Positions 9,428 through 33,757 of a DNA stretch of 64,000 nucleotides are shown here, in pieces. Numbering within the stretch: position 1 is the stretch's first letter; every line of letters begins with the position of its first letter. The DNA comes from an uncultured Actinomycetes bacterium (GTDB lineage Bacteria; Actinomycetota; UBA4738; HRBIN12), in assembly GCA_963704725.1 (NCBI GenBank), contig OY969934.1, positions 980,711 through 1,044,710 on the forward strand, in the 5' to 3' direction. Under the pieces are notes generated by a model that did no database searches, was not told where the DNA came from, and saw nothing but the letters and a program-made list of their open reading frames with translations. The translations under genes and the position numbers were made by a program.

Positions 9428-10222
9428 TCAGGCCTCGAACGTGGCGCCCTGCAACGCGGTGGCGCACACGCAGTCGCGCGCTTCGGGGAGCTCGGGGATC
9501 GTCGCGAACAGCAGCTCTCGAAGCTTGGAGTTGTTCTCGTTGAACACGCGGATCACCTCGTCGTTGGTCACGGGGGGGATACCCTCGACCCCGACGTCGT
9601 AGTCGGTGATCAGCGAGATGTTGGCGTAGCAGAGCTCGAGCTCCCGTGCCAGCACCGCCTCGGGGTACTGGGTCATGTTGATGACCTCCCACCCGGCCGC
9701 CTTGAACCAGGCCGACTCGGCGCGAGTGGAGAACCTGGGGCCCTCGATCACGACCACCGTCCCCCGGTCGTGCACGGGGATGCCGAGGGCTCGGGCCCGC
9801 TCGATCGCCACCCCGCGCATCGTCGGGCAGTACGGGTCCGCGAACGCGATGTGCGTGGTCACCGGCCCGTCGTAGAAGGTGTTGGGCCGGGCTCGCGTCC
9901 GGTCGACGAGCTGGTCGCAGATCACGAACTCGCCCGGCTTCACGTGCTCCTGGAGTGAGCCGCACGCGTTCGGGCCGATCACGCGGCTCACGCCGAGCTC
10001 CTTCATGGCCCACAGGTTCGCGAGGTAGGGGATCTTGTGCGGCGGGTACTCGTGTTTGGGCCCGTGCCGGGGGATGAAGGCCACGCGCCGCCCGCCGACC
10101 TCGCCGACGACCGGCGGCGCGGCGGGCGGGCCGTAGGGCGTCTCGACCTCGACGACCTCGGTCTCGTCCAGGAACGAGGAGAAGCCGGAGCCTCCGAACA
10201 CCCCGATCTCCGCCGTCGTCAC
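9428..10222 (-). CDS. mtnP: S-methyl-5'-thioadenosine phosphorylase
   Basis: Purine nucleoside phosphorylase fold with N-terminal IGVFGGSGF and MTAP-like sense throughout. Candidate GTG start at 10222. There is no stop codon between this and the upstream FmdB-like segment. Confidence 0.75.
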   Translation of the reverse strand: MTTAEIGVFGGSGFSSFLDETEVVEVETPYGPPAAPPVVGEVGGRRVAFIPRHGPKHEYPPHKIPYLANLWAMKELGVSRVIGPNACGSLQEHVKPGEFVICDQLVDRTRARPNTFYDGPVTTHIAFADPYCPTMRGVAIERARALGIPVHDRGTVVVIEGPRFSTRAESAWFKAAGWEVINMTQYPEAVLARELELCYANISLITDYDVGVEGIPPVTNDEVIRVFNENNSKLRELLFATIPELPEARDCVCATALQGATFEA

Positions 10223-10549
10223 GACGGCGACGCCTCCTTGGGCGCGGCCTTCGCGGGGCCCGATCCCGAGGACGTGGTCCGAGTCCGGCCCGGACGAGGA
10301 CGGTCCCGAGTCCGACGGGGGTTTGCCCTCGCCCCGGCGGTCCTTCTTCGTCGCGGCCGATGGTTTGGAGCCCGAGCGGCTGTCGGTGGCGTAGAAGCCC
10401 GAGCCCTTGAACACGATCCCGGCCGGGTGGAACACCTTGCGGAGCGGGCCGCCGCACACGCCGCACGTGGTGAGCGCGTCCTCCGTGAAGCGCTGGAAGA
10501 CCTCGATGTGCTGTCCGCAGGACGTGCACTCGTACTCGTACGTCGGCAC
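10223..10549 (-). CDS. FmdB-family zinc-ribbon protein segment, in frame with mtnP with no intervening stop
   Basis: GTG at 10549. VPTYEYECTSCGQHIEVFQRFTEDALTTCGVCGG...KGSGFYATDSR is the canonical FmdB zinc ribbon, followed by a low-complexity tail. The frame reads straight through into mtnP. Confidence 0.5.
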
Positions 10550-11607: not shown

Positions 11608-12870
11608 ATGGCGCAAGCCCATCACGTCCACGATCACGACAGCGGCGAGGGCCTGCGCACGGTCGAGGAGGCGCGCGCCGGCGTCCTCGAGAAGGTCTCG
11701 CCGCTCCAGCCGCTCGAGCTGCCGCTGACCGAGGCGTACGGATGCGTGCTCGCGCGCGACGTCGTCGCCGACACCGACATCCCCGCGTTCGCGAGCTCGG
11801 CGATGGACGGGTTCGCCGTGCGGTCCTCGGAGGTGGTCGGCGCGACGCCGACCGCGCCGGTCGAGCTCCGGGTCGCCGGGCGCGCGCTGATCGGCCGCCG
11901 CCCCGAGGGCACGGTCGGAGGGGGCGAGGCGATCCGGATCGCCACTGGCGCGCCGGTGCCGGCGGGCGCCGACACGATCGTGCCGATCGAGGACTGCGAG
12001 CTCGTCGGAGAGAACGTCCGCATCCTGGCCGGGCCGCCCGAGGGCCGCCACATCCGGCCGGCCGGGGAGGACGCCAAGGCGAACGAGCCGCTCGTCGCCG
12101 CGGGCCGGCGACTGCAGGCTCCCGAGCTCGGCCTGCTCGCGACGGCCGGCGTCTCCCATCCCCTCGTCCGGCCTCGGCCCCGCGTCGTCGTCCTGTCGAC
12201 GGGTGACGAGCTGATCCCGCCGACGCAGACGCCGGAGTTCGGGCAGATCCGCGACTCCAACGCGTACACGCTGTTCGCCGCGCTACGTGAGGCCGGCGCC
12301 GTGCCCATGCTGGCCGGCATCATCCGGGACGACGTGGACGCGCTGAAGGAGACCGTGCTCTCGCACCTGGTCCAGGCCGACGCGTTCGTCTCCTCCGGCG
12401 GCGTGTCGGTGGGGGAGCGCGACGTGGTCAAGGCGGCCTTCTTCCGGCGCGGCGAGCTCGACTTCTACAAGGTCGCGATGCAGCCGGGCATGCCGCAGGG
12501 GTTCGGGACGATCGAGGGGAAGCCGTACTTCGGCCTGCCCGGCAACCCGGTCAGCGTGTTCGTGAGCTTCGAGGTCTTCATCCGGCCGGCGCTCATGAAG
12601 ATGATGGGTCGGCGGAACCTCCTGCGCCCCGAGGTCACCGCACGGCTGGAGGAGCCGGTGACGGGTCCCCGGGGCAAGACCCAGTTCGCGCGCGTCCGGG
12701 TGAAGCGAACGCGCGACGGTTGGGTGGCCCATCCCACGGGCGGGCGCGGCTCGAACCTGATCGCCACCGTGGCGCGAGCCAACGGGCTCGCCGTGGTCCC
12801 CGCCGGCGTCGAGACCGCCGAGGCGGGTTCCGAGGTCCGCGTGATGCTGTTCCGCTCGATGGAGGACTGA
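11608..12870 (+). CDS. moeA: molybdopterin molybdenumtransferase
   Basis: 420 aa with MoeA sense (GGVSVGERDVVK, GLPGNPVSVF). Confidence 0.85.
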   Translation: MAQAHHVHDHDSGEGLRTVEEARAGVLEKVSPLQPLELPLTEAYGCVLARDVVADTDIPAFASSAMDGFAVRSSEVVGATPTAPVELRVAGRALIGRRPEGTVGGGEAIRIATGAPVPAGADTIVPIEDCELVGENVRILAGPPEGRHIRPAGEDAKANEPLVAAGRRLQAPELGLLATAGVSHPLVRPRPRVVVLSTGDELIPPTQTPEFGQIRDSNAYTLFAALREAGAVPMLAGIIRDDVDALKETVLSHLVQADAFVSSGGVSVGERDVVKAAFFRRGELDFYKVAMQPGMPQGFGTIEGKPYFGLPGNPVSVFVSFEVFIRPALMKMMGRRNLLRPEVTARLEEPVTGPRGKTQFARVRVKRTRDGWVAHPTGGRGSNLIATVARANGLAVVPAGVETAEAGSEVRVMLFRSMED

Positions 12871-12875
12871 GCGGG

Positions 12876-13370
12876 ATGGACGCCGCCGCACCCGGCTCGC
12901 CCACGTCCGGACGACCGGAGGACGCCGCCCGGATCGTCGAGGTCGGCGCGAAGGAGGTCACGGAGCGCGAAGCGGTGGCGGAGTGCGTCGTCACGATGAC
13001 GGCGGAGGCGTGCGCCCACCTGGTCGCCGGCACGCCGAAGGGCAACCCGCTGGAGGCCGCGCGGATCGCCGGCGTGATGGGCGTGAAGCGGACGCCGGAC
13101 CTGCTCCCCTTCTGCCATCCGATCGCGATCACGGGCGCCGAGGTGATCGTCACGCCGGAGCTCGAGACCGGCCGCATCCACGTGCGCTCGACGGTCCGCG
13201 CGATGGACCGCACCGGCGCCGAGATGGAGGCGCTCACGGCGTCCGCGGTGGCCGCGCTCTCGCTGTACGACACGGCGAAGGCGTACGACCGCGCCGCGCG
13301 CATCGACGGCCTGCGCCTGCTCGAGAAGCGCGGCGGCAAGTCCGGTCACTACGTCGCCGACGCGGGCTGA
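12876..13370 (+). CDS. moaC: cyclic pyranopterin monophosphate synthase
   Basis: ATG 5 nt after the moeA stop. MoaC sense (GAKEVTEREAVA..., TGVEMEALTA-like). Confidence 0.85.
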   Translation: MDAAAPGSPTSGRPEDAARIVEVGAKEVTEREAVAECVVTMTAEACAHLVAGTPKGNPLEAARIAGVMGVKRTPDLLPFCHPIAITGAEVIVTPELETGRIHVRSTVRAMDRTGAEMEALTASAVAALSLYDTAKAYDRAARIDGLRLLEKRGGKSGHYVADAG

Positions 13371-14764: not shown

Positions 14765-15214
14765 ATGGCCGTTCGCAAGGACAAGGTTCGTGAGCAGTAC
14801 CTGGCCGCCGTGCAGCAGCATCTGGAGCCGGGCGAGCAGCTCGTGACGGGTGCGTACGCCATCCAGGGGCCGAGCCCGCTGTGGGTGTCCGGCCTATTCG
14901 GGCTCATCGGCATGGTGGTGGCCAACGTCCGCTACTACTTCGTGTGGGTGACGGATCGCCGCGTGCTGTTCCTCAAGGGCTCGTTCTGGACGGCACGTCC
15001 CACGGGGTTCGCGTGGTCCGATCTGCGATCGGCCGTCCAGATCAACGAGGTCTCGCCGGCGATGACCTGGAGCTGGTTGCGCTACCACCGGCCCGCAGGC
15101 GGGAAGCCGATCCGGCTGAACTTCGCCCGACCCTGGCGCGACGAGTTCGGTCAGATCACCGCAGCGCTATCAGGGAGCGGCGCGTCCACGCCGCCCGCTC
15201 CGCCGCCGACCTGA
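14765..15214 (+). CDS. hypothetical protein (bacterial PH-domain-like?)
   Basis: 149 aa with a central hydrophobic hairpin. The ATG follows the upstream stop by 3 nt. Confidence 0.4.
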   Translation: MAVRKDKVREQYLAAVQQHLEPGEQLVTGAYAIQGPSPLWVSGLFGLIGMVVANVRYYFVWVTDRRVLFLKGSFWTARPTGFAWSDLRSAVQINEVSPAMTWSWLRYHRPAGGKPIRLNFARPWRDEFGQITAALSGSGASTPPAPPPT

Positions 15215-16830
15215 GCCCACGGACCGCTGGTACGCTTGCTCCTCGTCCCGGGGGTGTAGCTCAGTCCGGTAGAGCACTGCCTTCGCACGGCAGGGGTCGG
15301 CGGTTCGAGTCCGCTCACCTCCACTTTCAACGTCTTATTCGAACTCGGGCGAGAGAAGAGAGGCGCGAAGACCTCCGAGAACTCGGCCCGACCGATCTTC
15401 CGGTCCTTGATGTAGACGGCCTGGAGCACGGCGTCATTGAAGCGTCGTCGCACCAACGGTCGCGCCTTCAGATACGCGGCGTGGCAGTTCCCGGCGAGCC
15501 GGATGGCCGCTCGGAGCACCTCCTGCCAGCCCTCGAGGTCGCCCTCCGTCGCCTGGAGCTCGGCCTTGGCCGCATGCTCGGCGACGCCGATGCGATCCTG
15601 CTCCGACTTCAGGAGATCGAGCGGGATCGCGTTCGCGTAGAAGGCCTGCAGGAGCTTGCCGCGCTCGTCGGCCGCCTTGGCGAGCGTCCTGGTGAGGAGC
15701 ACCCGGCGCTCGGAGGCCTCGGCCTGCCGCTCGACGATCTCGGCCTCCAGCTCCTCGGTGAGCCGGCGTACCCATGAGGGTGGCAGCTGGATCCTCCCGT
15801 ACAGGTCCTCGATGAGCGCCTCGGCGTCCCCGGCCAGGATGTACGGCTGGCGGCACCCGGTCCGGGCTGAACCGCGCTGCCCGAGACAGTAGAAGTAGAG
15901 GTACTTGCCCTTGGCGAGCGTGAGCGACAGGCGCCTGCCGCACTCCCCGCAGTGCAGCAGCCCCTTCAGGTAGTGCTCGTGGCGGCGTTGGCGGACCCCG
16001 GCGACGTCGCGGGCCCGCAGAGTCTCCTGGACCCGGTCGAACAGGCTCTGGGGAATGAGCGCCTTGTGCTGGCCCGGATAGCGGGCGCCTCCCCACTGCA
16101 CGACCCCGAGGTAGAACGGGTTCGCCAGCATCTCGGCGAGCTTGGAGATCGAGACCGGAGCGCCCGGCCTTCTCGCGTACGGTGACGTCAGCCCCTTGGC
16201 GTGCATCGTGGCCTGGAGCTCGGGGAGCGAGCAGTCGCCGGTGGCGTACAGCCGGAACGTCTCTCGGACCAGCAGCGCCCGTTCGGGATCGAGGACCACC
16301 TTGGCGATGTCCTTGCCGGCCGTCTTCTCCCTGACGTTCAGGTAGCCGATGGGGGCCTTGGTCGGCCAGCCGCCCATCTTGGCCTTCTGGGTCATGCCCT
16401 TTCGGATCTCGCCGGCCAGGTTGGCCGAGTAGAACTCCGCCATAAGCGCGTGGATGCCCTCCACGAGGCGTCCGGAGGCCGTCTCCTCGATGTTCTCGGT
16501 CACCGAGACGAGCTGGACCCCCGCGTGGCGAAGTGCCGCCCTGATGGCCACGTGGTCCTCCATGGAGCGGGCCAACCGGTCGATCTTGTGGACGACGACG
16601 GCTCCGATCCCGCCCTCGGCCACCCGGCGGAGCATGGCCTTCAGCATGGGGCGGTCGGCCGTGCGGGCGGACTCGCCGGCATCGGTGAACTCGTCTGCGA
16701 GGTCCCATCCGCGCTCGGCGATGTGGCGAAGGCACGCCTCCCGCTGGGCGGGGATCGAGTAGCCCTCGCCGGCCTCGTCGTTGGAGGCCTGCTCCTTGGT
16801 GGAGACCCTGAGGTAGATCACCGCGTCCAT
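15151..16830 (-). mobile_element. large serine recombinase (integrase) of the tRNA-Ala-adjacent island
   Basis: N-terminal resolvase catalytic domain (MDAVIYLRVSTKEQ, active Ser in VYLRVS), then recombinase and zinc-ribbon domains (CGECGRRL). The ORF reads on through the antisense of the tRNA because there is no stop until 15151. Confidence 0.8.
15250..15323 (+). tRNA. tRNA-Ala (anticodon CGC)
   Basis: GGGGGTGTAGCTCAG...CTGCC-TTCGCAC-GGCAG...GGTTCGAGTCC...CACCTCCA folds as a cloverleaf. G3:U70 Ala identity pair is present, discriminator is A, and CCA is not encoded. Confidence 0.85.
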
Positions 16831-17065
16831 CGCTCGTCCTCCTCTTGGTCCTCCAGTGCCAGCGCCAGGTCGACCAGAGCCCGGGCCATCGGGCGCAGCG
16901 CACCCGGCTCGGGAGCATCCGGCCGGTCCACCCCCGGACGCGCAAGCGTAGTCCGGGCAGGTGTCGCTCCCAGGGCGTCGTGCTCGTCGGCCGAAGCCGT
17001 GTTGATCCGGTCGCGACGGCGATCGTGTTCACCCTCGAGTCCGCGCGCATTCGCGCGGCGCGGGG

Positions 17066-18052
17066 TCAAGGAGCATGTCGGGGCGGTAGGGCGCGGAATC
17101 GGGGTGTCGCTGCTACGGGAGAGATCCGACGACGGTGGCCGGCATCGGCATCAGTGAAGTACCGGCCGAGGCATCGTGCAGCCGGGTAGAGGTCACGAGG
17201 TCGGGCCGGCAGGTCGATTAGCGACAGGCGATCTCCGTCGGTGGCAAGGTGCTTCCAGGCGACTCCGAGCGCGCCGAGCTCGGTCAGTTGTTCCTCGCTC
17301 GCCACGTACAGCGGGAACGACGTTGCGAGCGAGCCCGAGATGTGCAGGCTTCCGACCGCGGCACGAAGTGCGGAGCCGACCTCCCCCTCGCGCACCCCCT
17401 CCGGGACGATGATGAGGAGATCCGGAAAGCCCGGAAGCTCCTGCTCCTTCGTCCACCCCGCCGCGAGGCGGAGGTAGCCCTCGAGCTTGCGCGAGAGCGC
17501 GCCGAACGCCTCGGTGCCGCGGTCGTACTCCAGGTAGAACTCGCACGTCCCGGCCGGGTGCAGGTACCGGCCGAACCCGTCGGGCTTGACCTCGGCGGCC
17601 CTCGTGCGGACCCAGTGCTCGGGCCGCCAGGTCACCAGACAGTGGCCCTGGAGGCCTCTGGAGGCCTCGGCGAGCGCGCAGAAGAACGCGTTGACCCCGA
17701 GGCGGTGGGCAAGCAGCAGGTTCGTCCGGTAGCTGTGATCGGGGACCCAGGGCAGTTCGGAGGCGCGGACGCCCTTCGCGTCGGCGACCTCGGCGAGGCC
17801 TGGCTTCGTGAGGTACCAGCAGGCGGGCGGCCTCCCCTCCCCGAAACCCCTCCCCACCGAGAAGGATGAGATGAGATCAAGATCTCTCAGTTCCTTGAGC
17901 CGGTGCTGGGCTCTCCTGAGCGATGCGAAGAAGAGGCTCTTGATCTGGTGGGTGGTGAGGACCTTGTGCTCGAGCAGGCTGAGGAAGATGGCGTGGTCTC
18001 GTTCATCGAGCGAGACCAGGCGGTGAAGGTCGTTTCGTTCTGCTCGAACCAT
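17066..18052 (-). CDS. replication-relaxation family protein (plasmid/ICE-type)
   Basis: ATG at 18052. N-terminal HTH (DHAIFLSLLEHKVLTTHQIKSLFF...) and overall Replic_Relax-like sense. The upstream part of the ORF is low-complexity. Confidence 0.55.
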   Translation of the reverse strand: MVRAERNDLHRLVSLDERDHAIFLSLLEHKVLTTHQIKSLFFASLRRAQHRLKELRDLDLISSFSVGRGFGEGRPPACWYLTKPGLAEVADAKGVRASELPWVPDHSYRTNLLLAHRLGVNAFFCALAEASRGLQGHCLVTWRPEHWVRTRAAEVKPDGFGRYLHPAGTCEFYLEYDRGTEAFGALSRKLEGYLRLAAGWTKEQELPGFPDLLIIVPEGVREGEVGSALRAAVGSLHISGSLATSFPLYVASEEQLTELGALGVAWKHLATDGDRLSLIDLPARPRDLYPAARCLGRYFTDADAGHRRRISPVAATPRFRALPPRHAP

Positions 18053-19004
18053 GTTCTGGGCACAGCTCCCCCCTCCTTCGGTGGGTGGCCTTCGGCCAAA
18101 CAACCCCGTGACCTGCGGTTTCGCGATCTGACGCCCTGTGCTCTCACGCCGCCCACGCGCCGTCGGTGCTCGCAGCACCCGGCTCCCAGGGACGGTCGCG
18201 AGCTCGCGCCAGGGCGCGCGGCCGCAACCTGCCGCCTTTCCGAGGATGTTCAGTTCGTGCCGATCCTCACCTCCTCTGCTCGCGCTCAGGCATGCTTCGG
18301 CAAGCGTCGGCCGGGATCGAATGCCGCCGAGCCGTCCGCGCTTTCGCCGCCTCACCCTCGCGCTGCGTCTGCCGGCACTCGGTCCTCGTCCGCCTCGAGC
18401 CTCCGGTCGTGCGCCTTGCCTCCTTCATCTCCGAGCTCGCCTCCCATGAGGTGCCCGGGTTCGGGGCTGCAGCGCTCCCGTCGGCTCTTGGCCTCGAAGC
18501 CCTTGCGTCCGCCTTGGCGTTCGCGAGGGATGACGGCGTCTTCGCATCCGGCCGGTGGTGACGATTCCTGCCTCCGCCGCCACGGCAACCCTGCTGGCGA
18601 ATCAAGTGCCAAGACGTGGCCATCTCCACCCCTACAAAGGCACCAGAGGGGCTCGGATCGTGTCGGCGAGGAGGGGCGAGTTCATGAGGAGCTTTCGGGG
18701 AGTGCAGGTCAGGAGGGGGTTGAGACTCAAAGAGGACCGGAGGGCTTGGGAGCAATAGGCCTCGACCTGTGCCCCGAGCGATAGCAGGTGCGGGATGGCG
18801 TCTCTGTCGATGGTGTCAGGTGGTCCATAGGCGCACCACCTGGTTCGACGCGCGACCAGGCGTTACGCGGCAAACGCCGGACCCTGTCCCCGATTGGGTC
18901 CCCTCAACGAGGGACCTTCGGACATGGGATCCGGCCCCAGGTTCGTGTTCCTTTACCGGACGCGGAGGGGGGCTCGCCGCAGCAGGCGGACGAAAGGAAT
19001 CGCC

Positions 19005-22000
19005 ATGCTGAAGCTGCGCCGTGCCTCTCACCACCTGGACGAGTCACGCTCCTGGCGCGCTCATCTACGTCAGGCGGCGTGCATTGCCAGCCTTGCCCTC
19101 ATCGCCGGAACGTTCCCTGCCGTGACCGCAACCGCCGACCCACAGGTGACGCCGGCGGACCAGCAGGTCCTCCTCGCCGAGCCCGGTCCTCCTCCCAAGG
19201 CCCTCACCGATGCCGACCGCATTCCTCCACTTGCCGCCCTGGACGAGGACGGTCAACGCAACCCGGAATCGGTTGCGCTCGTCCTGCCAGACGAGCTGGC
19301 GACGGCCTCGCCCGGTGACGAGACGGCCGATGCGAGCGCCCAGGGCATCGTCCCCGTGCCTGAGCAAAGCGCTCCCACCGTCGACGTGTTCGCGTTCGGC
19401 GATCCGGACGCCGCACACGCCGCCGTGGTCTCCACCGTCCCGGTGAACACACAGGCCGCGGACGGAACCTGGCAGGATGTCCAGCTCGCGCCGGAGCCCG
19501 GTCAGGGCTGGACGGCGACGATCCCCAACGGTTCGCTGCTGTTCCCGGAGAAGCTCACATCCGAGACCCCGGTTCAGGCCACGTTTGGGCCCTTCACGAT
19601 CGGCACGTCGCCCATCGAGTCCGACGCGAGCGCCGTCGGGGGCATCGTCGCAGATGATCGGCCCGGCTCGATCACCTATCCGGAGGTCCTGGTCGCGACG
19701 GACTTCGTCTACTCGGCCACGGCTGCGGGATACGAGGAATTCGTCGTCTTGAAGGACAAGAGCGCATCGTCGACCGTGTCGTGGACGATCGAGGCGCCGG
19801 GACTGGCGCTCGCGCTCGGCGAGGGCGGCGACATCGTGGTCCTTGACGGGAAGGACGCCGTCAGCGTCATCCCGCCGGCCGTGTCGTGGGACTCCTCCTT
19901 GCCGCCGCGGATCGACAAGGCGCCGTACACGTTGACGCAGACCGGCGAGGGGCGCTTCGAGATGGGCGTCGCTCTCGACCCCGCCTTCCTCGCCGCGGCC
20001 ACCTATCCGATCACGATCGACCCCGGATACCAGTACCAGTTCGCCCAGGACAACGACGACACCTACGTGGACTCGAGCACCCCCGATACCGACTACCGAG
20101 ATGCCTGGCTTCAGGTCGCAAACGGCGGCCCCGAGCGGCGGGCGTTCGTGCGCTTCGACACGGCCGACCTCCGGCGCGACGACCGCATCGTCTACGAGGC
20201 ACGGCTCGACCTGTACGTGTGGGAGGCGACGGAGAACGCCCCCGCCGTGGACGTGCGTCGCGCGACCCAGGCCTGGCCCGACCCGCTCACGTGGAACACG
20301 CAGCCGTCGGTGGATCCAGACGTCCTTGACTCGGCGAGCTGCGCGTTCTGCCTCGGGTGGATGAGCTTCGACGTCTCGGCCGCCTACCAGCACTTCCTGC
20401 AGAGCGACATCGCCGAGCCCTGGTCCGATGATGGACTTCGGGCCTCGACCGACGGGGCGACCTCGTACCTGTTCCGCTCCGCCGAGAGCGTCGGCGGGCC
20501 GACGCTCTCGCTTTCGTGGAACGACCTGCCGCACGCCCCCTTGCTCGACACCCCGGCGGACGAGTACGTCTTCGAGGACGACACGCCCACGCTGAAGGTT
20601 CAGGGCGGGCAGGACTGGCCGAGCGATCCGAACAGCGACGTCGTCCTCGTGCAGTTCCAGATCTCCGACGACGGGCAGGACTTCACCGGAAACCATATCG
20701 TCTGGGAGAGCCCGTGGCTCGACTCGCGTTCCTACGTCGTGCCCTCGGGGATCCTCACGGACGGCCAGACCTACTACTGGCGGGCCCGCTCGTGGGACGC
20801 CTGCTACTCGAGCCCCGCCTACCAGATGTGTTCGTACACGGACGCCCTCGGCGCCGAGCACGAGCGCAAAGCGACCGGCGTCCGCTCGTTCACCGTGGTG
20901 ATGAAGCACCTCGGCAAGGACGAGCGGTGGGCCATGTGGTCCCACGACCTCGGCAACGGCATGGACCTGAACGTGAACGAGTCAAACGGCAACCTGTTCC
21001 TGGACGTCCCCCTCGACTCCCTCGCCACCCCAGTGGGCGACCTCAGCATCGGCCTGTCGTACAACTCCCAGCAGGAGGCGGACTACGGCCTGTCGCCGGG
21101 CTGGGACGTCGCGATCGGGGCCGCCGGGTCGCTGCGGGATCTGCCGATCGATCTCGTCAAGCTGGACGACTTCCCCGACAACGGCGTGAAGGTCCGGTTC
21201 CGGGGTGGCCGGACCTCCTACTTCCCCCACCGCGATCACCACGTCTTCGCCACGGTCACCGCCGGGGCGGGCACCATCCGGCAGAACGCCGATGGTGGAT
21301 TCACGTTCGTGTCGCCGGGCGGCGACCGGTACGAGTTTTCACAAGCCGGCCGGCTCCTTTCGGCCAACCCGGTGGCCACGAACCTGGCCTCCGGCGCGAA
21401 TGCGATCAGCTACGTCTACAAGGAACCGAGCTCGACCACGTGACCGACCCTCTCGGCAGGCGGCTGGACCTGACGTGGGCGGGTGGCCAGCTCACCTCGA
21501 TCCAGACCTGGGCCGGTCAGGCCTGGACCATCGACTACAACCCGAACAACGGCCGGCTCCAGGACGTCTCGGTCCAGGTCACGAACCCGAGCACCACCCA
21601 GACGCGGACGGAGACGGTCGGCTTCTCCTACTTCATCGGGGCCCAACGCCCAGGAGGACTCCTTGCCGAGATCGACGACGGCGAGACGTTCACCGGCGGC
21701 CGTGACGGCTGGACGGTGGAGTACTCGGAGGACTCCGAAGAGAACTGGCGGGTCTCGACGCTCACCCCGCCGCCGGGCGGCGGGCCTGAGCCGCTCTCCT
21801 CCTGGGTCTTCCAGTACCTCGGCGACGTCATGGGCTCCACCGCGGCGACGGCGTGCGTGACCGACCCGCTGGGGACCGCGGACACGCAGGGTGAGATCAC
21901 CTGCGACCAGGCGCATCAGACGATCGTCGACTTCAACTGGGCGGGCTTTCCCGTCCGCATCGCGGGCCCCGCAGACCAGACGGGGTACTGGCCCGTCCGG

Positions 22001-25000
22001 ACCTTCGTGTGGGACTCGAACAACAACCTCCTCTGCCGGCGCGAGCCGGCCGCCAACGCCGTGAACGAGATCTCCGGCGCGAACCTGTGTCAAAGCGACA
22101 AGCTCTCGACCGTCTACGCCTACGAGTCGGAGGCGCCGTTCCGGCTCCTTGTGACGACGCATCCCTCCGCCAAGCCCGACGGGAGCTCGGAGCGGCTGAA
22201 GGACGCCTACCAGTACGACTCCGACACCAACGGCGCGAACTTCAACGGCCTGTGGGTGGAGAAGTACGAGAACGCCAACCTGTCCGGGATCCCGGCGGAT
22301 GAGTCCGTGTGGACCAACTTCGACGCGAACTGGGGGAGCGGCTCGCCGCCCGGACTCACCAGCACCGACGGGTTCAGCCTGAGGTGGACGGGGCTCATCG
22401 ACACGCGGTCGAGCTGGTACAACCTGGAGAAGGTCTTCTTCCGGATCACCACCGCGGATGAGGGCGTCACGCTCATCGTCGACAACAAGGTGCTCCTGGA
22501 CTGCTTCGGCACGACTCAGCCCGCCGGGACGTTCAACTGCGGCACGAACCAGGACGTGTTCAAGATGCTCGACGCCGGCCAGCATCCCATCACCATCGAG
22601 TACTCCGATCCCTCCGGTCTGGCCTCGTTCAATCTGCAGTGGATGGTGACGCAGGGGAGCTTCGGCCCGATCCCCACCTCCCGGCTCCAGACGAACCTCG
22701 GCCTGCTCACGCTGCAGCAGACCAGGCGCGTGTACTCAAGTGGCTCGGACGCCGCGTTCTTCCTGAAGACCGCCTACACCTTCCCCGACGACAACGCCAA
22801 GGCCCGGCACATCCCGGACTCGGTCGCCGTGACCGACCTGGACCCCAACCCTGACGTCGTCCGCAAGACCGCCTACACCTACAACGCCTTCGGCCAGGTC
22901 CGCACGACGACGACCGCCGCGGCGACCTCGCTGGCCGCGACGACCACGTACGACTACACGAACGAGGACCCGGTCTCGTGCCTGAGCTCCGTGGAGGAGC
23001 CGGACGGCGCCACGACGGAGTACGAGTGCGACGCGGCGGGCGATGTCACCCTAACCACCCAGATCGTGCGGACCGTTGCGGGAACGAACCAGACCGAGCA
23101 GGAGCGGTCGACATCGACCGAGTACGACACGCTCGGCCGCGTCACCTCGGTCACCTCGCCGTGGGGCGGATCCACGACCACGAGCTACGACCTCGCAGGC
23201 CGGGTCGCCACGGTCGATCAGTACCTGGGCCCCGGTGCCGGCCACGACGCCGATGCCATCACCGGGTACGAATACGACGACGCCGGGCATCTGCTCACCG
23301 AGACCCTGCCGGAGGTCGCGGACCCGGAGAACCCGGGCTCCGAGGTGGCCCCAGTGATCCAGCACGCCTACGACTGGCTCGACGACGAGGTCGGCACGAC
23401 CGACGTCCGCGGGCAGGAGTGGAGCTACGCCTACGACGCGTTCCGGCGCGTGATCGAGACCGAGAGCCCGTCCGGGCTCATCGCCGAGAGCGAGTACCGG
23501 CTGGCGAGCGCGCCGTCCGGTGGCACCGAGCAGCACCAGGTCACGACGTGGTCGCCTCCCGGCCACACTGGCGGCGTTCCGACCGTGACCGTCCTCAACC
23601 TGTTCGACCGACCCAGAACCGAGCAGACCGGCACCCTGGCGGCCCGCAGCTTCCTCTACGACGTGCAGAACAACGTCACGAGGGTCACCGAGCCCTCCGG
23701 CGTCTACACGACCTACTCCTACAATCGCTTCGGCGATGAGACGTCGATGTCGGAGTACCAGCTGCTGGCCACGACGACGTACGCGTACGACGCGGCGGGG
23801 CGTTTGCAGCGGGTCGACGGGCCGCGGGTCTCGACCGACGCCGACGATTCGGTCAACTACGCCTACGATGAGCAGGGCCGACTGGAGACGGTGACGCAGA
23901 ACGGGATCACGCTGCCCGGCGCCTCCTCACCCGGCGTGAGCACGACGTATGTGTGGAACGACGCCGACGAGCGGATCCAGGTCGTCCAGCCCATGAGCAC
24001 GACGCAGACGATGGTCCGCGACTGGATGAGCGATCCGGCCTCGGGCACCTCCACGTACGAGGACGCCCGGGGAACGACGACCTCGACCCACGACCTCTCG
24101 GGGCGGGTCACGAGCGTGGACGACCCTCGCGGCATCACCCTGCACTTCGAGTTCGACAACCAGGGCAGGCTGATCCGGCGCTACGGCGAGGACGGCCAGA
24201 CCACCGTCGACGACCAGAGCCTCGGATACGACCTGGCGGGCAACCAGATCTCGGCGACGGTGGTCGCCGCGAACACGACGATCGCGACGGACTTCGACGA
24301 CGACGGACGGGCGTGGCACGTCTACCAGGACAGCTACCCGAGCCCCACGACCACCTACGCATACGATCCCTCCACCGGCCGACCCTCCTCGATCACCGAT
24401 GCGGCGGGGACCACGTCCTACGCGTTCAACGCCAACGGCCTGCTGGCCGAGGTCACCGATCCGTTCGCCTCGACCCACGTCGTCTACGGGTACGACGCCT
24501 ACGGCCGCGTGACCAAGCGAACCGACGGGAGCGGGCTGTGCTGGACCCAGACGTATGACTCAAGGAGCGGCCTGCCCGACATCCGGCGCATCCGCCAGGG
24601 CGGCACCGGCTGCGGCGGTACGGTGCTCGCCACGTTCGACCTCGGCTTCGACAAGGCGGCGAACGTGCTGAGCCGTTCCGAGACGATCACCGGCAACTCC
24701 TTCGGCGGCAACTACACGTACACGTACGACGGGGCGAACCGGCTGATGAGCGTGACCGGCCCCGCCGCCTTCGGCTCGCGGACGTACGCCTTCGACGGGG
24801 CGTCCAACCGAACGAGCGTCCAGGTCGGCACCGGCACGCCCACCACGACCAGCTACGACGACGCCGGCCTGCCCACCACGTCCTCCGACGGCACCACGTA
24901 CACCCACGACGCCTCGGGCGACCTCACGGGCATCGACCGGCCGGGCACGGCGAATGACTGGCTGTACGGCTACAGCTCCTGGAACCAGCTCGAGGTGGCC

Positions 25001-26221
25001 GAGCACACCCAGGGTGCCGCCGAGGTGACCTACACCCTGGACGCCCTGGGCCGGGTGCTGTCTCGGACCTCGGGCGGGACCACGGCCTCCTACACCTACC
25101 AGGGCACCGGCGAGAGACTTGCTAGCGCGAGCGTGGGTGGGACGACGACAATGTACGCGTACGTGCCGTCCGGCCCGCTCGCCGAGCGAACGGGGACGAC
25201 CACCCGCTACTACCTGCGTGATCAGCACGGGGACACCGTAGGGTTGGCCAACACCTCGGCCGCCCTTGCCGGGACGAGGCTGTATGACCCGTGGGGGGAG
25301 GCGCTGCAAGGGACTGGAGAGATGGCGACGGCGCCGGCACAGGGCTCGCTCGGGTTCCAGTCCCAGCTCACCGACGCCTCGACCGGGCAGGTCGACATGC
25401 TCACGCGGATGTATGAGCCGGGGCTCGGACGGTTTAGCTCCAGGGATGCGCTGTTTGGTGACGCATCAAACCCCGTTTCCCTGAACCAGTTCGGCTACGG
25501 ATCCGCAAGCCCCGTGACCCTGTCCGATCCGACCGGACTATATCCAGTTGGGTACGACGGGTCCGGAGGGGACTGCGGAGATGCGTGCGCCAACCCTCAG
25601 CAGTACGGCTACAACAGGGGTGATCCGCCATCCGTGAACGCTCCCGATCCCCTCCCTCCAGCATCGACACAGATGCCGACAGTTACGGTGGACTGGACGC
25701 AGACCCGAACAGCCGAGGGCTGGTCGCCGTACATTGTTGGGGAAGATTTCTTGACTGCGTTTGCCCGCTTTATCACTGGGTGGAGTTGCGAACTCGAGGG
25801 ATGCGCGCCAATCAACCCCGGTTCAATCGGTGTTGGTGTCGTGGCACAACTTACTTACCGGAGCTTCATGCGAAGCAGACCCAATGGTTGGCAACTCTCG
25901 ATTCTCGTTGTCGCCGACACACGTCGCCTGAACCCCGAATCAGGTTTTGAGCTTCAGTCCCTAGAACTGCACATCCGGGGCAAGGGGGGCGCCCAGCTTC
26001 TGGGGAGCTATTCGAAGGAGTATGTCACGACAGCCGATGGCCCTGGCTACCTGTACCACGTCCATGTCGCAACTGGCTCTCCTCAACCCGCGACGATCGT
26101 CGCCTCGGTTACGGCAGGGCCAAGTGAAGGAGCGGCAGGTCCCATCGAGGCCGTGACGCAGGTCTACTTCGACCCAATGCCGACTGGGCCCTTGCCGCCG
26201 CAAGAGATTCCACCATGGTAA
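19005..26221 (+). CDS. RHS/YD-repeat polymorphic toxin with signal peptide, PA14-like insert and variable C-terminal toxin domain; interrupted by a frameshift near 21420-21443
   Basis: ATG at 19005 with AAAGGAAT upstream, and a signal-peptide-like N-terminus. There are dozens of YD repeats (YxYDxxGRL, VTDPLG...). PA14-like segment GLWVEKYENANLSGIP...ITIEYSD. RHS core end MYEPGLGRFSSRD...DPTGL sits at about 25526-25540, followed by a roughly 225-aa low-GC tip. Confidence 0.85.
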
Positions 26222-26241
26222 CGACTAAGGGGAGCAGACCT

Positions 26242-27051
26242 ATGGGAGTCCGGACAGTGGGGATCTTGCTCATGACGGGTGCAGCATTGATGACAGCTTG
26301 TGCGAGGGACGGTCGTGTCATCGCGCCCGCGGCTGCCTTGCGGTCGAGCGTGCTTTCGTGTACGGCGGGATCAGCTGGATCCAAAACGGTTGCCATCGAG
26401 TTGGAACCGACTCCCCAGACCCCGCCGGCTGTGGCCGCGCTCATCCCCCACCTCCGGCTCTCCAGCTATAACTACAGATCGTCCTCCGCACCAGCCGCCG
26501 ATGCGACATCGGTACTGCCGGTTCCACTCCCGTCGGGGGCTGGCAACGTCCTCGATCTGTCGACAACGGATGCATCGGTTCAAGATGCGCCGCCGCCAGT
26601 TGCGCTGATTCCGACCGAGGGGAACCGATACGCGGATCTGATCCTCGCGGGCTTGCTAATGGTTCACGAAGCCGAGATTGCATTGAGGGGCGACTCACTC
26701 GAAAGGCTCCTTGGGGTGTCGGTGGACATGCCGATCGGAACCGCAACCGTAAATGACGTCCACATTGCGGGAGAGCAAGTGACCGTGACCGTCAGTTTGG
26801 ATTGGGTCGACGGTCTCGGCGGCAGTTCTGCATTTCAGCCGAGAGTGAGCATCGTGCCTGCCTTTGGACCTGGAGGCGCACCTCTCGGGGATATCGGCGT
26901 CGATTTCAATGGCGCGTCGAGTCAATCACTGCGCTTTCGCTTGCCAGTTGGGCGTCAAGATGATCCAGTCGCTCTGCGCTTGAGCGATTTCGGCGTCGAG
27001 TACGCGGCGTCCGTGCGCGTCACAGGCATCGGGCAAGCATGCGGGGGATGA
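26242..27051 (+). CDS. lipoprotein encoded immediately downstream of the RHS toxin tip (candidate cognate immunity/partner protein)
   Basis: ATG with AAGGGGAG RBS 20 nt after the rhs stop. Signal peptide plus lipobox (LLMTGAALMTAC). Same low GC as the toxin tip. Confidence 0.5.
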   Translation: MGVRTVGILLMTGAALMTACARDGRVIAPAAALRSSVLSCTAGSAGSKTVAIELEPTPQTPPAVAALIPHLRLSSYNYRSSSAPAADATSVLPVPLPSGAGNVLDLSTTDASVQDAPPPVALIPTEGNRYADLILAGLLMVHEAEIALRGDSLERLLGVSVDMPIGTATVNDVHIAGEQVTVTVSLDWVDGLGGSSAFQPRVSIVPAFGPGGAPLGDIGVDFNGASSQSLRFRLPVGRQDDPVALRLSDFGVEYAASVRVTGIGQACGG

Positions 27052-27084
27052 GTCCCCGAGTCCGGGGTGGCCGAGCGCACCCAG

Positions 27085-27260
27085 GACGACTTGACCTGCG
27101 CCCTGGACGCGCTGGGTTGGAAGCTCACGCGGACCTCGGGGTGACCTTACGGGTACACACGCCAGGGGACGAGAAGACTTGGCCGGCGCGGGGGTTGGGT
27201 GGGACGACGCCCAACTATCCGCACATGCCGGCGGGCGGACTCGCCAAGCAGTCCTAGGCT
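27085..27260 (+). pseudogene. vestigial RHS core fragment (orphan rhs remnant)
   Basis: Nucleotide similarity to 25010-25200 of the main rhs gene (...ccctggacgc.ctggg...cggacctcggg...gggtgggacgac...). Broken by stops and frameshifts. Confidence 0.5.
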
Positions 27261-27491
27261 GTCGGTCAAGATCACATCGCTAACTCGCCCGCGCTAAGGA
27301 CGGAGTTGAGGAGTCGGCCCACCGCACCGTCGCACTCATGCATCGAGGTCCACGTCCGTGATCAGCCTTCGGACCTGGGCCACCAGAATGCGCCAGGAGT
27401 TCGAGTAGCGTCCCTTCAGGTCCACGCGACCTTCCGGTGCCGGTCTTCGTGTCTGCGAGCGGAAGGGCACCGGCCGAACATCGCGGGGTCG

Positions 27492-28783
27492 CTAGGGACC
27501 CAGGAGCGCGGCGGGGACGACCCCTATCCCGTCACGTCGGCGGTACGCGGCATCGCCAGTGCTTACGACGACAGCGTCGAGCAGATCTTCGCCTATCCGA
27601 TCACGCAACCACAGAAGGTCCCGAACGTCGTCGTCGCGAATGGTCTGCGCCAGCTTCACCTCGATGCCGACGACCCGCCCATCAGCGCGCTCGATGATGA
27701 GATCGACTTCATGCTCCCCTGAGGCGGTGCGAAGGTGTCTCGTCGTGGCTTCGGCCGCCTGCGCAAAGACACGAACGTTGAGCGTCACGAGGGACTCGAA
27801 CAGCGAGCCGAGGAACGTCCCGTCACGCGGGATCGGTGGACCAACGGGTTCGGCCTCGAGGAGGGCCTGTCGATCGATGCCGAGCAGCCGTGCCGCTAGG
27901 GCGGGGTCGAGGAGCTGGTGCTTCGGGGGGACGAGAGGCGTCGCAGATGGCTGCGAGTCGGGAGCCATGCCGGCACCGGATCGACGATCCATAGCCTCTC
28001 GAGCACGGTGCGGTAGGGAAGCGTCGCCTTTCGGGTCGGCTTCTCGGTCTCTCCACTTGTCGCCGCATCTCGGATCTTCTCGAACGAGGTCGTCGTCGAG
28101 GAGGCGGCTGCGTATGCGGTCATCCAGCTTCGGAGCGTCTCCGGTCTGCGCACCCGATGACCCATCTCATCGAAGTCGTGGTCGACGATGCGCTGCAGAT
28201 AGCCATCGAGTTGAGACCGAAGCGCACGGCCGGAGAGACCGCGCAGCCCCGGGAAGCCTGAGGCGAGTATCTCGTCTACGTAGTCTTCGAGTCGAAGCCT
28301 GGTGCTGCCCTCCAGGTCAGGACGCCTTCCTCCGAGGATCTCGCTCAGGCTGACCGTTGGCGTCGCGATCTCGCGCTCCGGGAGGGTCATCGTTCGCAGC
28401 CGGACCGTGACGATCCGCGCCGCACCCGAGTGAGTTGATGGCTTCTCGGGAGAGGCAGATCCGGTCAGCAGGTATGAGGCGGGGCGCTCGGTTCCGTGTT
28501 CGTCGACCGCACGGCGAACGAGATCCCACGATTCCGGCAGTCGTTGCCACTCGTCGATGAGCACCGGAGGAGGGCCGTCCAGCAACCGATGTGGGTCCGC
28601 CACCGCAACGCTGTACTGCGACGGATCGTCGAGGCGGTGGATGGTCGCCGCCCGCCGAGAGGCCGTGGCCGTCTTCCCGACGGCCTTGGCTCCTTCCACG
28701 GCGATGGCAGGGAGCTCACGCAGCAGTTCGTCGAGCTCATCGTCCACGATGCGCCGGATGTACCGGTCGACGGTGTCTGTCAT
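27492..28783 (-). pseudogene. AAA_14 / DUF4143 ATPase gene split by a -1 frameshift in a homopolymer run
   Basis: N-terminal ORF 27896-28783 carries a P-loop (GAKAVGKT, Walker A). C-terminal ORF 27492-27992 is the DUF4143 part (PKHQLLDPALAARLLG...EVDLIIERADGRVVGIEVK). The frames can be joined at the run G6 (27925-27930, plus strand). Confidence 0.6.
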
Positions 28784-28990: not shown

Positions 28991-30163
28991 TCACCTGTTG
29001 AGTTGTCGAGCCAGGTCCTCGAACATGTCGGCGATTTCGATGCGGGAAAGCCCTTCAGGCATCCCCATGGCAGGTCCGTACGCCAGGTTCAAGAAGCAGC
29101 CGAGCACCACGTCGACCTCCGATGCGTCCGCGTCAAGGGAATGCCACGAAGCGTAGTCGCCAGCCGGCTTCGGCTCCCGACGAAGACGCGGAGAGAAGGC
29201 CCGCGCCGTATCCACCTTGCCGACCAGGACATCGAACTCGTCTTCGCCCAGATCATCGATGGTGTGGTCAGTGACTCTCGCCCACGTTTCGAAGAGCTCC
29301 GGGCTGCCTCGCAACTCGAAGGCCTTGGGCGCGAGCTCCATGGTGGTACGTGCGACTTGGAGCGCTTCCCGTAGCACGTCTCGGGCGCCGAGACGTGATT
29401 GCATCCGGCTCCGATGGAGACCCTGGGCAATGAGAAGCGCCGTGGCGCCATCGCGCGCTTGCAAGTCCGGATCGGCGCCGTTCGCCAGGAGGATGCAGAC
29501 GACCGAATCATGACCCCGCTCCACAGCGTGCATCAAGGCTGTCCGACCTGCCTCATCCATTGCGTTTGCGTCGGCGCCCGCTTGGAGCAGCGTATCGATC
29601 CCTGCCGGGTCGTTGAGTCGAGCAGCGAGGACAACGATCGGCGTGCCGTCTCCTCGTCTCTCGTTGGGATCTTCCCTACCTGAGAGGAGGACTCTGAGGA
29701 CCGCTGGCACGGCCGTGTGCTCGACCGCGCCGACGATCAGCGGTTCCTCTCGAGGCAGAGCCGCCGCGCCAGCGCCCAAGAGTGCTTCGAGGATCTTGAC
29801 CTTCGACCTCGAATCGGGCGGGGGACGGAGGATCTCGTGAGCGATGCTTCCGCGCTTGTCTCCGAAGTTGGGGTCAGCGCCATGCTCGAGGAGAAGGGAC
29901 ACCACTTCGGCGTGACCGTGGATCGCTGCCGCTCGAAGAGGCGTCCACTCGCGGCCGCTGACCGAGTCTGGAGATGCCCCAGCATTGAGAAGCAGCCGAA
30001 CGATCTCGACCGCTCCGTCCTGAGCCGCTATGGCGAGTGCTGTATTGCCTCGCGGCGGCGCGGGAAGATTGGGATCGGATCCAGAGCGGAGAGCGCGACC
30101 GACCCCCTCCAGGTCGTTGGCTCGAACAGCGTCCACGAGTTCGTCGCTTTCCACAAGAACCAT
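28991..30163 (-). CDS. ankyrin-repeat protein
   Basis: At least 5 ANK repeats (GNTALAIAAQDGAVEIVRLLLNAGASPD; WTPLRAAAIHGHAEVVSLLLEHGADPN; GRTALMHAVERGHDSVVCILLANGADPD ...). Lower GC than the chromosome background. Confidence 0.7.
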   Translation of the reverse strand: MVLVESDELVDAVRANDLEGVGRALRSGSDPNLPAPPRGNTALAIAAQDGAVEIVRLLLNAGASPDSVSGREWTPLRAAAIHGHAEVVSLLLEHGADPNFGDKRGSIAHEILRPPPDSRSKVKILEALLGAGAAALPREEPLIVGAVEHTAVPAVLRVLLSGREDPNERRGDGTPIVVLAARLNDPAGIDTLLQAGADANAMDEAGRTALMHAVERGHDSVVCILLANGADPDLQARDGATALLIAQGLHRSRMQSRLGARDVLREALQVARTTMELAPKAFELRGSPELFETWARVTDHTIDDLGEDEFDVLVGKVDTARAFSPRLRREPKPAGDYASWHSLDADASEVDVVLGCFLNLAYGPAMGMPEGLSRIEIADMFEDLARQLNR

Positions 30164-30257: not shown

Positions 30258-30635
30258 TCAGTACGGAGCCCGCAGCCCCTCGATCATGGGGAAGTGCCGC
30301 ACATTCGTGGTGAGCAGATCTGCCTCGAAGACGATCGCGGTTGCGGCGATCAAGTAGTCGGCGTCGTCGATGCCACTGTGGCTGCGCCTGAGGCGGTGGG
30401 CGAGGGTGCCGGCAGTCCTGCCGATCTCCTCATCGATCGGCGCCCACTCGAGCGAGGAGAAGAATGCCTCCAAGGCCTTCATCTCGGCCTTCCGAACGCC
30501 GGCCAGCAGCTCGAACCGCGTGATCTCGCTTGCGACGAGGGTCTCACCTTCGGAGATCAGGCCGGTGAGCAACTGCGTGGCGGTCGACGCGCCTCGGAGG
30601 TGATCCACGGCGATCGTCGTGTCGATGAGCTTCAC
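30258..30635 (-). CDS. vapC: PIN-domain toxin VapC
   Basis: 125 aa, [15 protein letters not shown]... with acidic PIN residues. Overlaps the vapB stop by 4 nt. Confidence 0.8.
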
Positions 30636-30892
30636 TCGAGGCCGACGCGCCGAAGCCGCTCGTTCAGGTCACCGCGCAAAGCATCCACGTACTCCTCCCC
30701 GGTGAAGCGCCTTCGCTTCCAGCTTGCCGCGCTTCGACGGAGACCCTCCAGGCGGGCCTCCTGCGATGGCTCGCCGAACGTCCTCTGGATCGCGCGACGA
30801 ATCAACTCGGATCGTGAAGCACCGGTCTCCGTGGCCACCTGATCGAGCAGCTCCAGCTCATCCTGACCCAGGTAGACCTGTGTCCGTCCCAT
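30632..30892 (-). CDS. vapB: VapB antitoxin (ribbon-helix-helix/CopG-like)
   Basis: [35 protein letters not shown] has an RHH fold sense. Operon-coupled to vapC. Confidence 0.65.
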
Positions 30893-30968
30893 GCCGCCAC
30901 TATACACCACATGGTGTACCGGTCTGAATGCGTCGGGTTCGGGCTACGGATGGACGACGGCGGCGCGA

Positions 30969-33157: not shown

Positions 33158-33757
33158 TCACCGGCCGCCGAACCGCCAGTCGTGGATCTCGACGCTCGTG
33201 TAGAGCTCGGCCCGCACATAGGGATCGTCCGTCAGCATCGCGTCGAGCGCGGCACGATCGGGCCTCTCGACGAGCGCCGCCGTGCCGAGCCACGTCTCGC
33301 CGTCGTCGGCCAGCAGCGGCCCGCGCGCGATGAACGCATCGCGGTGACGGTCGAGGTGGCGACGGCGCTCGTCGCGGAACGGATCACGCCTCTCGGCGCC
33401 GTCCGATGCGCCGTGGCCGATGATCAGGAACCGTCGGTTGCGGACGGGATCGCCCTCGAACTCCCACATCGTGCGTCCCAGGACGTTGCGCCACCGCCGG
33501 ATGAGCACGTCGTCGTACACGCCGGCTCGGTAGTTGGGCTCCTCGAAGGCGAAGACCCTCGCCGCCTCGGCGTCGGGGAGATCGACCATGTGCATGCTGC
33601 CGGTCGCCGACTCGCCGTCCGGGGCCAGCGTGGGGCCTCGCGCGATCATCGCGTCGGCGTACGCATCCATGAACGATTGGTGCGCCTCGGATAGCTCGGG
33701 ATCCTCGCGCATGGGCGCGCTGCCGGGGCGGTCGCGGCAGTAGAAGAAGTACTCCAT
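33158..33757 (-). CDS. tandem YciI-like domain protein
   Basis: MEYFFYCRDRPGS... and a second RRFLIIGHGASDG... half, each YciI-like. Confidence 0.6.
   Translation of the reverse strand: MEYFFYCRDRPGSAPMREDPELSEAHQSFMDAYADAMIARGPTLAPDGESATGSMHMVDLPDAEAARVFAFEEPNYRAGVYDDVLIRRWRNVLGRTMWEFEGDPVRNRRFLIIGHGASDGAERRDPFRDERRRHLDRHRDAFIARGPLLADDGETWLGTAALVERPDRAALDAMLTDDPYVRAELYTSVEIHDWRFGGR

Follow-up and report, generated by a model that had tools for sequence, protein, structure and literature searches.

The rhs locus that we analysed lies in a 64,000-nucleotide stretch of DNA (hereafter the window) from an uncultured Actinomycetes bacterium (assembly GCA_963704725.1, contig OY969934.1, positions 980,711 to 1,044,710). 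It comprises, all on the forward strand, the 5' reading frame of an rhs gene (19005-21443), the 3' reading frame of the same gene up to a predicted cleavage motif (21425-25540), a C-terminal tip of 226 amino acids located after this motif (25541-26221), the gene of a 269-amino-acid lipoprotein (26242-27051) and a decayed, frameshifted fragment of an rhs core (27063-27249). As explained below, the rhs gene lacks one base; the residue numbers given for the rhs protein refer to the 2405-amino-acid protein obtained after restoration of this base. This protein begins, at the ATG in 19005, with a segment that by inspection is a Sec-like signal peptide (residues 1-44; 19005-19136), with a positive n-region, the h-region AACIASLALIAGTFPAVTATA and the ending ATA followed by D. 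Its N-terminal region carries a CBM96/DNRLRE domain (residues 348-502; 20046-20510; Pfam E = 1.4e-12, NCBIfam E = 4.9e-17) and the first YD repeats, and is followed, in the 3' reading frame, by a PA14 domain (22244-22648; Pfam E = 1.1e-10; 42 bits against a cutoff of 24) and the YD-repeat shell. The RHS/YD repeats were matched by PF05593 (E = 1e-42, six stretches) and TIGR01643 (E = 8e-31), and the Rhs_assc_core (TIGR03696; 25283-25540; 58 bits against a cutoff of 32.5) ends in PVTLSDPTGL, with DPTGL in 25526-25540, in agreement with the PxxxxDPxGL core end of RHS toxins. Apart from the CBM96/DNRLRE domain, these elements had been noticed in a first-pass annotation of the window, made by reading the sequence without database searches, which placed the PA14-like segment at about 22230-22650.

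Pfam searches of both halves of the rhs protein returned no targeting domain of the type VI or type VII secretion systems (no match to PAAR, VgrG, LXG or WXG); at E ≤ 0.01, they gave no match to an NHL or FN-plug family. The N-terminal signal peptide thus stands with no such targeting domain, as in the Sec-type RHS proteins, and the CBM96/DNRLRE and PA14 domains occupy the place of the N-terminal wall- or carbohydrate-binding module of the WapA-type proteins. Together, these domains and the signal peptide support the initial proposal that the locus encodes a Sec-type, WapA-like RHS polymorphic toxin.

The rhs gene had been taken for a single 7.2-kb gene, and RHS toxins are expected to be encoded by a single intact reading frame, but it is split by a one-nucleotide deletion at 21421 into two overlapping frames, the first one running from the ATG in 19005 to a premature stop at 21443, and the second one to the stop at 26221. 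The frame switch occurs inside a YD repeat, which reads ...NAISYVYK in one frame and GTELDHVTDPLGRRLDLTW in the other. The site (21420-21424) was located by a base-by-base comparison with L001 (ENA ERZ25039533:contig_79534), a metagenome contig with 99.4% identity to window positions 15327-27422. The window, which reads TACAA-GGAACC, has one C fewer than L001, which reads TACAACGGAACC (translated YVYNGTELDHVTDPLGR); this additional C of L001, at window position 21421, gives the in-frame sequence YVYNGTELD. We considered the possibility that the frameshift is a sequencing or assembly error and that this organism has an intact, active gene. In its favour, L001 reads through 21421 and yet has its own frame broken by another additional C at window position 25134, as random indel errors would give, and the nearby AAA_14/DUF4143 gene is likewise split. 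We nevertheless regard such an error as rather unlikely, for the following reasons. First, a Logan contig produced with a different assembler (L009, run ERR11718635) is 100% identical to window positions 18620-24443 (5.8 kb) and encodes the identical truncated product of 812 amino acids. Second, the 3' part of the rhs gene is called as a separate protein of 1593 amino acids (P0005) in the public 3.45-Mb NCBI record. Third, position 21421 does not lie in a homopolymer. Fourth, both split genes sit in an island, where decay is plausible. From the first three of these observations, we conclude that the deletion is probably real in this strain. As to the AAA_14 + DUF4143 ATPase gene (27492-28783, reverse strand), it consists of two overlapping frames (27896-28783 and 27492-27992) and is the second frameshifted gene, less than 8 kb away from the frameshift of rhs.

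The tip that follows DPTGL begins with a Gly-rich segment bearing a CxxAC motif and continues through a Pro-rich linker into a conserved domain of about 170 amino acids. In line with the first-pass annotation, which saw there a domain of about 225 residues with no recognisable motif, the tip matched nothing in Pfam (E ≤ 10), NCBIfam (E ≤ 1) or PHROGs, nor in a profile search of the PDB sequences at E ≤ 10. Neither the tip nor the lipoprotein had a match in 72,556 plasmids at the DNA and protein levels, and pattern scans of genome and metagenome contigs found nothing for either of them. Word-indexed homologue searches with the tip, the lipoprotein and the tip + lipoprotein alignment returned self-matches only, the last of them, which was capped at 8000 candidates, missing even known relatives. 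An exhaustive phmmer search of 1.84 billion cluster representatives yielded three matches to the tip: P0001, the copy of this same tip in L001; P0003 (JGI 3300036863), with 45% identity across the entire tip, after an Rhs core ending in DPTGM; and P0004, a 91-amino-acid tip fragment from L005. The true relatives of the tip in this very large set are thus two only (P0003 and P0004). As far as these searches reach, the tip belongs to no described family, as was supposed in the first place, and no known toxin family was found that matches it. In L005 (an ENA metagenome contig; positions 9743-10267 and 12457-12993), the fragment comes from a frameshifted orphan piece of the C-terminal part of the tip family, located 37 nt 3' of a tRNA-Arg, with no lipoprotein homologue, and an inverted rhs core-end fragment is found 2 kb from it, so that the locus consists of rhs debris beside a tRNA.

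The structure of the tip, a prediction of which had been advised, was modelled with AlphaFold2. The tip as a single sequence gave an unusable model (predicted local distance difference test, pLDDT, of 44), whereas the three-sequence alignment gave a pLDDT of 63 and a predicted template modelling score of 0.57, with tip residues 47-61 and 91-214 being mostly in the range 70-89. The latter model is a nine-strand beta-sandwich, the predicted core of which spans tip residues 47-214 (25679-26182), and fold searches with it returned generic sandwiches only.

The lipoprotein reading frame begins 20 nt past the rhs stop, after a ribosome-binding site AAGGGGAG in 26227-26234, and it was recognised as a lipoprotein gene because the signal peptide of its product ends in LMTA followed by C. 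This product matched no family in Pfam (E ≤ 10), NCBIfam (E ≤ 1) or PHROGs, Imm65 and the other immunity families included, and its best match in the PDB had an E-value of 0.87. In L004, the sole other full-length locus with this tip, the tip homologue is directly followed by a lipoprotein homologue (46% identity over residues 3-267; tblastn E = 3e-72), in which the signal peptide, Cys20 at its end, Cys40 and Cys267 are conserved. The tip and the lipoprotein are equally diverged from their L004 counterparts (45% and 46% identity, respectively), and they share a foreign codon usage, the GC content at third codon positions (GC3) being 0.63 in the tip and 0.65 in the lipoprotein gene, versus 0.89 in the rhs N-terminal region and 0.92 in the core. 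Because of this equal divergence and common codon usage, we consider that the tip and the lipoprotein form one cassette, which is how a toxin and its immunity protein would be expected to behave. This pair is very rare and previously undescribed.

The first-pass annotation had suggested that the true immunity gene might be another one or be missing, on the grounds that immunity proteins are usually small and cytosolic and that a lipoprotein is atypical for this role. The evidence points to the opposite view: the presence of a lipoprotein homologue directly after the tip homologue in L004, that is, of a downstream gene kept with the tip in one independent locus, makes the lipoprotein the best candidate for the immunity protein, with a predicted protective role. 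Immunity proteins of surface-acting toxins can indeed be secreted, transmembrane or lipobox-bearing (PMC3482391). As a lipid anchor would place the lipoprotein on the outer side of the membrane, the tip would most likely act on the envelope, and the most economical reading is that the tip acts outside the cytoplasm, where the lipoprotein would block it.

Alternatively, the lipoprotein might be an accessory or anchoring partner, or a receptor, of the tip or of the RHS protein, the true immunity gene being absent or located elsewhere, as would be the case if it were the ankyrin gene (28991-30163) that had been put forward for this role. Ankyrin-repeat proteins can serve as immunity proteins, and the lipoprotein, with its 269 amino acids, exceeds the size of most immunity proteins. 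In addition, lipobox-bearing immunity proteins are rare in polymorphic toxin systems, and lipoprotein partners that are not immunity proteins exist, such as MafA, the partner of MafB (PMC3482391). However, the MafA-type partners are encoded upstream and are non-polymorphic, whereas the lipoprotein gene lies immediately downstream of the tip, has its foreign codon usage and has diverged in step with it in L004. This alternative is, in our opinion, unlikely. The ankyrin gene itself was rejected as the cognate immunity gene because it is on the opposite strand, 1.9 kb away, and past the end (27425) of a 12.1-kb unit delimited by two independent assemblies.

To compare the rhs loci of relatives for alternative tips, as had also been recommended, we searched with the C-terminal 400 residues of the core and found two loci in metagenome-assembled genomes of Actinomycetota. 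The first one (L006) is an uninterrupted open reading frame of 2427 amino acids with 52% identity over residues 52-2227, its own signal peptide, a CBM96 domain and an unrelated tip of 256 amino acids. The second one (L007), with 34% identity, has a CBM96 domain, a weak PA14 match and yet another, unrelated tip of 152 amino acids. Furthermore, DNRLRE-RHS proteins of Streptomyces plasmids show 26-28% identity in the N-terminal region. Owing to these relatives, which combine the same scaffold with different tips, we regard the scaffold as being of a known and annotated actinobacterial type with polymorphic tips. A Gly-rich stretch with CxxAC occurs right after DPTGL or DPTGM in the window (25541-25600), L004 (335-400) and L006 (11390-11450), in spite of unrelated tips proper; this stretch could be either a linker that has been conserved or a site for a disulfide or a metal, as part of the scaffold rather than of the tip.

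We also weighed the proposal that the tip is not a toxin but a beta-sandwich module for binding or adhesion, in a teneurin-like cell-cell interaction protein of which the lipoprotein would be the ligand. We hold this proposal to be quite improbable. First, the tip is located after DPxGL, where RHS proteins carry encapsulated toxins. Second, homologous scaffolds bear unrelated tips at this place, as polymorphic toxins should. Third, the FN-plug and NHL domains that define teneurin-like proteins (PMC13018210) are those that were not detected. Fourth, the confidence of the beta-sandwich model is modest.

Turning to base composition, the GC content is 60.3% in the tip and 61.7% in the lipoprotein gene, compared with 68.1% in rhs up to DPTGL and 70.7% in the whole window. 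These two genes make up the lowest-GC 1.5 kb of the window, with only 0.2% of the equal-sized windows being as low. The maximum-likelihood breakpoints of GC3 are at 25433, 31 codons before DPTGL, and at about 26991. We therefore consider the GC drop to be real, sharp and coincident with the tip-lipoprotein pair, and these breakpoints, with the GC3 values, support the earlier view of a foreign cassette (25433-27051; GC3 about 0.63-0.65), which takes in the final 36 codons of the core together with the tip and the lipoprotein gene. The left breakpoint falls in the conserved end of the core, a place at which recombination would be expected. The drop had been described as extending from about 25400 through the lipoprotein gene, which holds true, and as going from 72% to less than 60%, which does not, the values being about 69-71% and 57-62%. 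That it is ordinary local variation affecting a native tip and lipoprotein, a possibility envisaged from the outset, can practically be dismissed: although the entire region of about 16.5-32.5 kb is somewhat below the mean GC of the window, the change in GC3 from 0.92 to 0.63 is completed over about 100 nt of a single reading frame, and the segment that it leads to is in the 0.2 percentile.

The rhs fragment found downstream of the lipoprotein gene (27063-27249) has its counterpart in 24991-25187 (core residues 1998-2063), with 71% identity over 201 nt (blastn E = 1e-18). In tblastn, the translated fragment aligns with rhs residues 1998-2024 in one frame and with residues 2044-2063 in another, and it also pairs with the core as the repeat families D6 and D8. 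Beyond 27249 the homology ends, and neither DPxGL nor a tip or immunity gene follows; the segment from which the fragment derives ends about 110 amino acids before DPTGL. An orphan rhs module would consist of a 3' core fragment with DPxGL, an alternative tip and an immunity gene. Because the fragment is frameshifted and has none of these three elements, we interpret it as a vestige of the internal part of the core, and neither as a copy of the core end nor as a complete orphan module. The earlier description of a decayed duplicate of the rhs core directly downstream is thus correct for the core, but not for its end. The vestige fits an older 3' segment that would have been displaced downstream and later truncated.

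The rhs locus appears to be part of a larger unit, which begins at the 3' end of a tRNA-Ala(CGC) gene (15250-15324, forward strand; ARAGORN, Rfam). Two genes of the reverse strand lie between this tRNA and rhs. One encodes a large serine recombinase (15325-16830; Pfam Resolvase, Recombinase and Zn_ribbon_recom; PHROG integrase, E = 1.6e-83), and the other one a Replic_Relax (replication-relaxation) protein (17066-18355; Pfam E = 5e-34; PHROG 'replication initiation by nicking'). The ENA contig_79534 covers exactly window positions 15320-27422, and the Logan contigs extend from 18620 to about 25379 and, for L003, from 25372 to 27425. The sequence TCCAC occurs in 15320-15324, at the 3' end of the tRNA (left junction), and on the forward strand in 27421-27425 (probable right junction), where the ENA and Logan contigs end (27422 and 27425, respectively). 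From these contig ends, the TCCAC found at both junctions and the recombinase gene located next to the tRNA, we propose that positions 15320-27425 are probably a discrete 12.1-kb integrative element inserted at the 3' end of tRNA-Ala, which contains the serine recombinase, the Replic_Relax protein, rhs, the lipoprotein and the rhs vestige, with the rhs system as its sole cargo. A search of the right junction for a second copy of the tRNA 3' end gave no more than a chance-level score, the 5-bp TCCAC being the sole shared sequence; as there is no longer attachment (att) repeat, the element is probable and not proven.

Several other features of this element are worth reporting. The junction of a circular element would read ...CAGG-TCCAC-TTTCAACG..., and an empty site would join the 3' end of tRNA-Ala to GCGACCTTCCGG. 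In the integrated state, the recombinase open reading frame (15151-16830, reverse strand) continues antisense through tRNA-Ala to 15151, and in the circularised element it would extend in frame into the right end (27340-27425, reverse strand) and stop after 29 codons; as the reading frame crosses the junction, integration would change the C-terminus of the recombinase. Of the 73 differences between the window and L001, 65 are clustered in 15961-17553 (the recombinase gene and the 3' part of the Replic_Relax gene) and 7 are in rhs; this clustering suggests recombination between variants of the element. The break between the two Logan contigs (25372-25379) is located shortly before the composition breakpoint, as would result from alternative tips coexisting in the sample.

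Taken together, these data lead us to favour, with moderate confidence, the view that this Actinomycetota genome carries at the locus a WapA-like RHS polymorphic toxin system, in which the tip and the lipoprotein are an acquired cassette of a toxin and its candidate immunity protein. We propose that the intact protein would be exported by the Sec pathway and held at, or targeted to, cell surfaces by its CBM96/DNRLRE and PA14 carbohydrate-binding modules. The tip would be housed in the YD-repeat shell and released after DPTGL through cleavage by the aspartyl protease site of the Rhs core. The tip and lipoprotein genes would have entered as a single two-gene cassette from a lower-GC source, through a crossover in the conserved core end, at about 25433, thereby displacing downstream an older 3' piece of the core, of which 27063-27249 would be the vestige. 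The lipoprotein, located on the outer face of the membrane, would be the cognate immunity protein, and the target of the tip would most likely be the envelope (membrane or wall) rather than the cytoplasm. In this strain, the toxin gene would have been inactivated by the one-nucleotide deletion, with the lipoprotein gene left intact, and the entire rhs locus would be cargo of the probable serine-recombinase element at tRNA-Ala. Within this scheme, the data establish the domain architecture, the frameshift, the shift in composition, the rarity of the tip, its linkage with the lipoprotein and the different tips of relatives, and it is from these that export, cleavage, toxicity, immunity, site of action and mobility are deduced.

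Several points weigh against this proposal. First, toxicity and immunity are predictions from sequence. Second, because the rhs gene is frameshifted, the system may be dead in this strain. Third, L004 is the one independent locus in which the tip and the lipoprotein are seen linked, and L005 has a tip fragment with no lipoprotein, though the L005 locus is decayed. Fourth, the model of the tip is of moderate confidence, being built from three sequences, and shows a generic beta-sandwich, for which neither an enzyme-like match nor a clear catalytic motif was found. Fifth, the signature of displacement of a toxin tip and its immunity gene, which the first-pass annotation had recognised, is present as regards the decayed core fragment downstream, but replacement of a former tip cannot be proven from a remnant with no core end, tip or immunity gene. 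Sixth, the boundaries of the element rest on contig ends and a 5-bp repeat.

Similarly to WapA of Bacillus subtilis and Streptococcus suis, the rhs protein combines a Sec signal peptide, N-terminal modules for surface or carbohydrate binding, a YD shell and a polymorphic tip, and its gene is followed by an adjacent partner gene and a truncated 'orphan' core fragment, rhs orphans having been described for the WapA class (PMC12704120). It is also worth mentioning that some S. suis WapA tips are toxic only when directed to the periplasm (PMC12704120). The present locus differs from WapA by its Actinomycetota host, the CBM96/DNRLRE and PA14 domains that it has instead of the WapA wall-binding repeats, its undescribed tip family, its 269-amino-acid lipoprotein partner and its frameshifted gene. 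The rhs loci of Escherichia coli and Salmonella, as they are summarised in a later account (Koskiniemi et al. 2014, via PMC12704120), also have a core ending in PxxxxDPxGL and lower-GC tip and immunity modules that are swapped by recombination at the core end, with displaced core fragments downstream. In the same account, these enterobacterial loci are linked to type VI secretion (PAAR/VgrG), unlike the Sec-type locus of the window, and their orphans retain the core end along with the tip and the immunity gene, whereas only a 187-nt internal vestige is found here. The DNRLRE-RHS proteins of Streptomyces plasmids and chromosomes (such as WP_331745235.1 on NZ_CP108645.1) have the same combination of DNRLRE/CBM96 and RHS core in about 2000 amino acids, but their identity is limited to the N-terminal percentages given above, their tips are different, and the plasmid searches retrieved no homologue of the tip or the lipoprotein.

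As to the candidate immunity protein, its predicted location outside the cytoplasm, facing an envelope-acting toxin, is reminiscent of the TelC/TipC system of Streptococcus intermedius. The same arrangement is found in the Imm65/Tox-JAB-1 and L,D-peptidase immunity proteins (PMC3482391), though the lipoprotein has no sequence match to Imm65 or any other Pfam immunity family at E ≤ 10. Finally, bacterial teneurin-like proteins (PMC13018210) share with the present system a YD shell around a polymorphic toxin, a downstream immunity gene and, in Gram-positive bacteria, a Sec signal peptide; membership of the rhs protein in this group was rejected because neither the FN-plug nor the NHL beta-propeller was detected in it. 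From these comparisons, it appears that the general type, a Sec-exported RHS shell with an exchangeable toxic tip, is well known, whereas the tip family and its lipid-anchored partner are new.

Elsewhere in the window, a PIN-domain (VapC-like) gene (30258-30635, reverse strand) and a small upstream reading frame (30632-30910) lie at the right edge of the lower-GC island and are followed by a Band_7/SPFH gene with the GC content of the core genome. An open reading frame of 1066 amino acids (33646-36846, reverse strand) shows an unusual fusion of N-terminal ECF sigma-70 regions 2 and 4 to five Calx-beta domains. A c-di-GMP-I-GGC riboswitch aptamer (55944-56030, forward strand; Rfam RF03167; 64.6 bits, above the gathering score) is located upstream of a small reading frame (56071-56553).

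In its present state, the rhs locus is an expected variation on a well-known theme, with a gene that is broken in this strain. If it is a true toxin/immunity system, it would add a tip family of extreme rarity (three loci in some 1.8 billion representative proteins), and the lipoprotein would join the few lipid-anchored immunity proteins of polymorphic toxin systems. It would also indicate an envelope target in Actinomycetota, the RHS toxins of which are almost unstudied, and the probable 12-kb element, in which a recombinase and a replication-relaxation protein are the only companions of the rhs system, would show a route by which such weapons spread.

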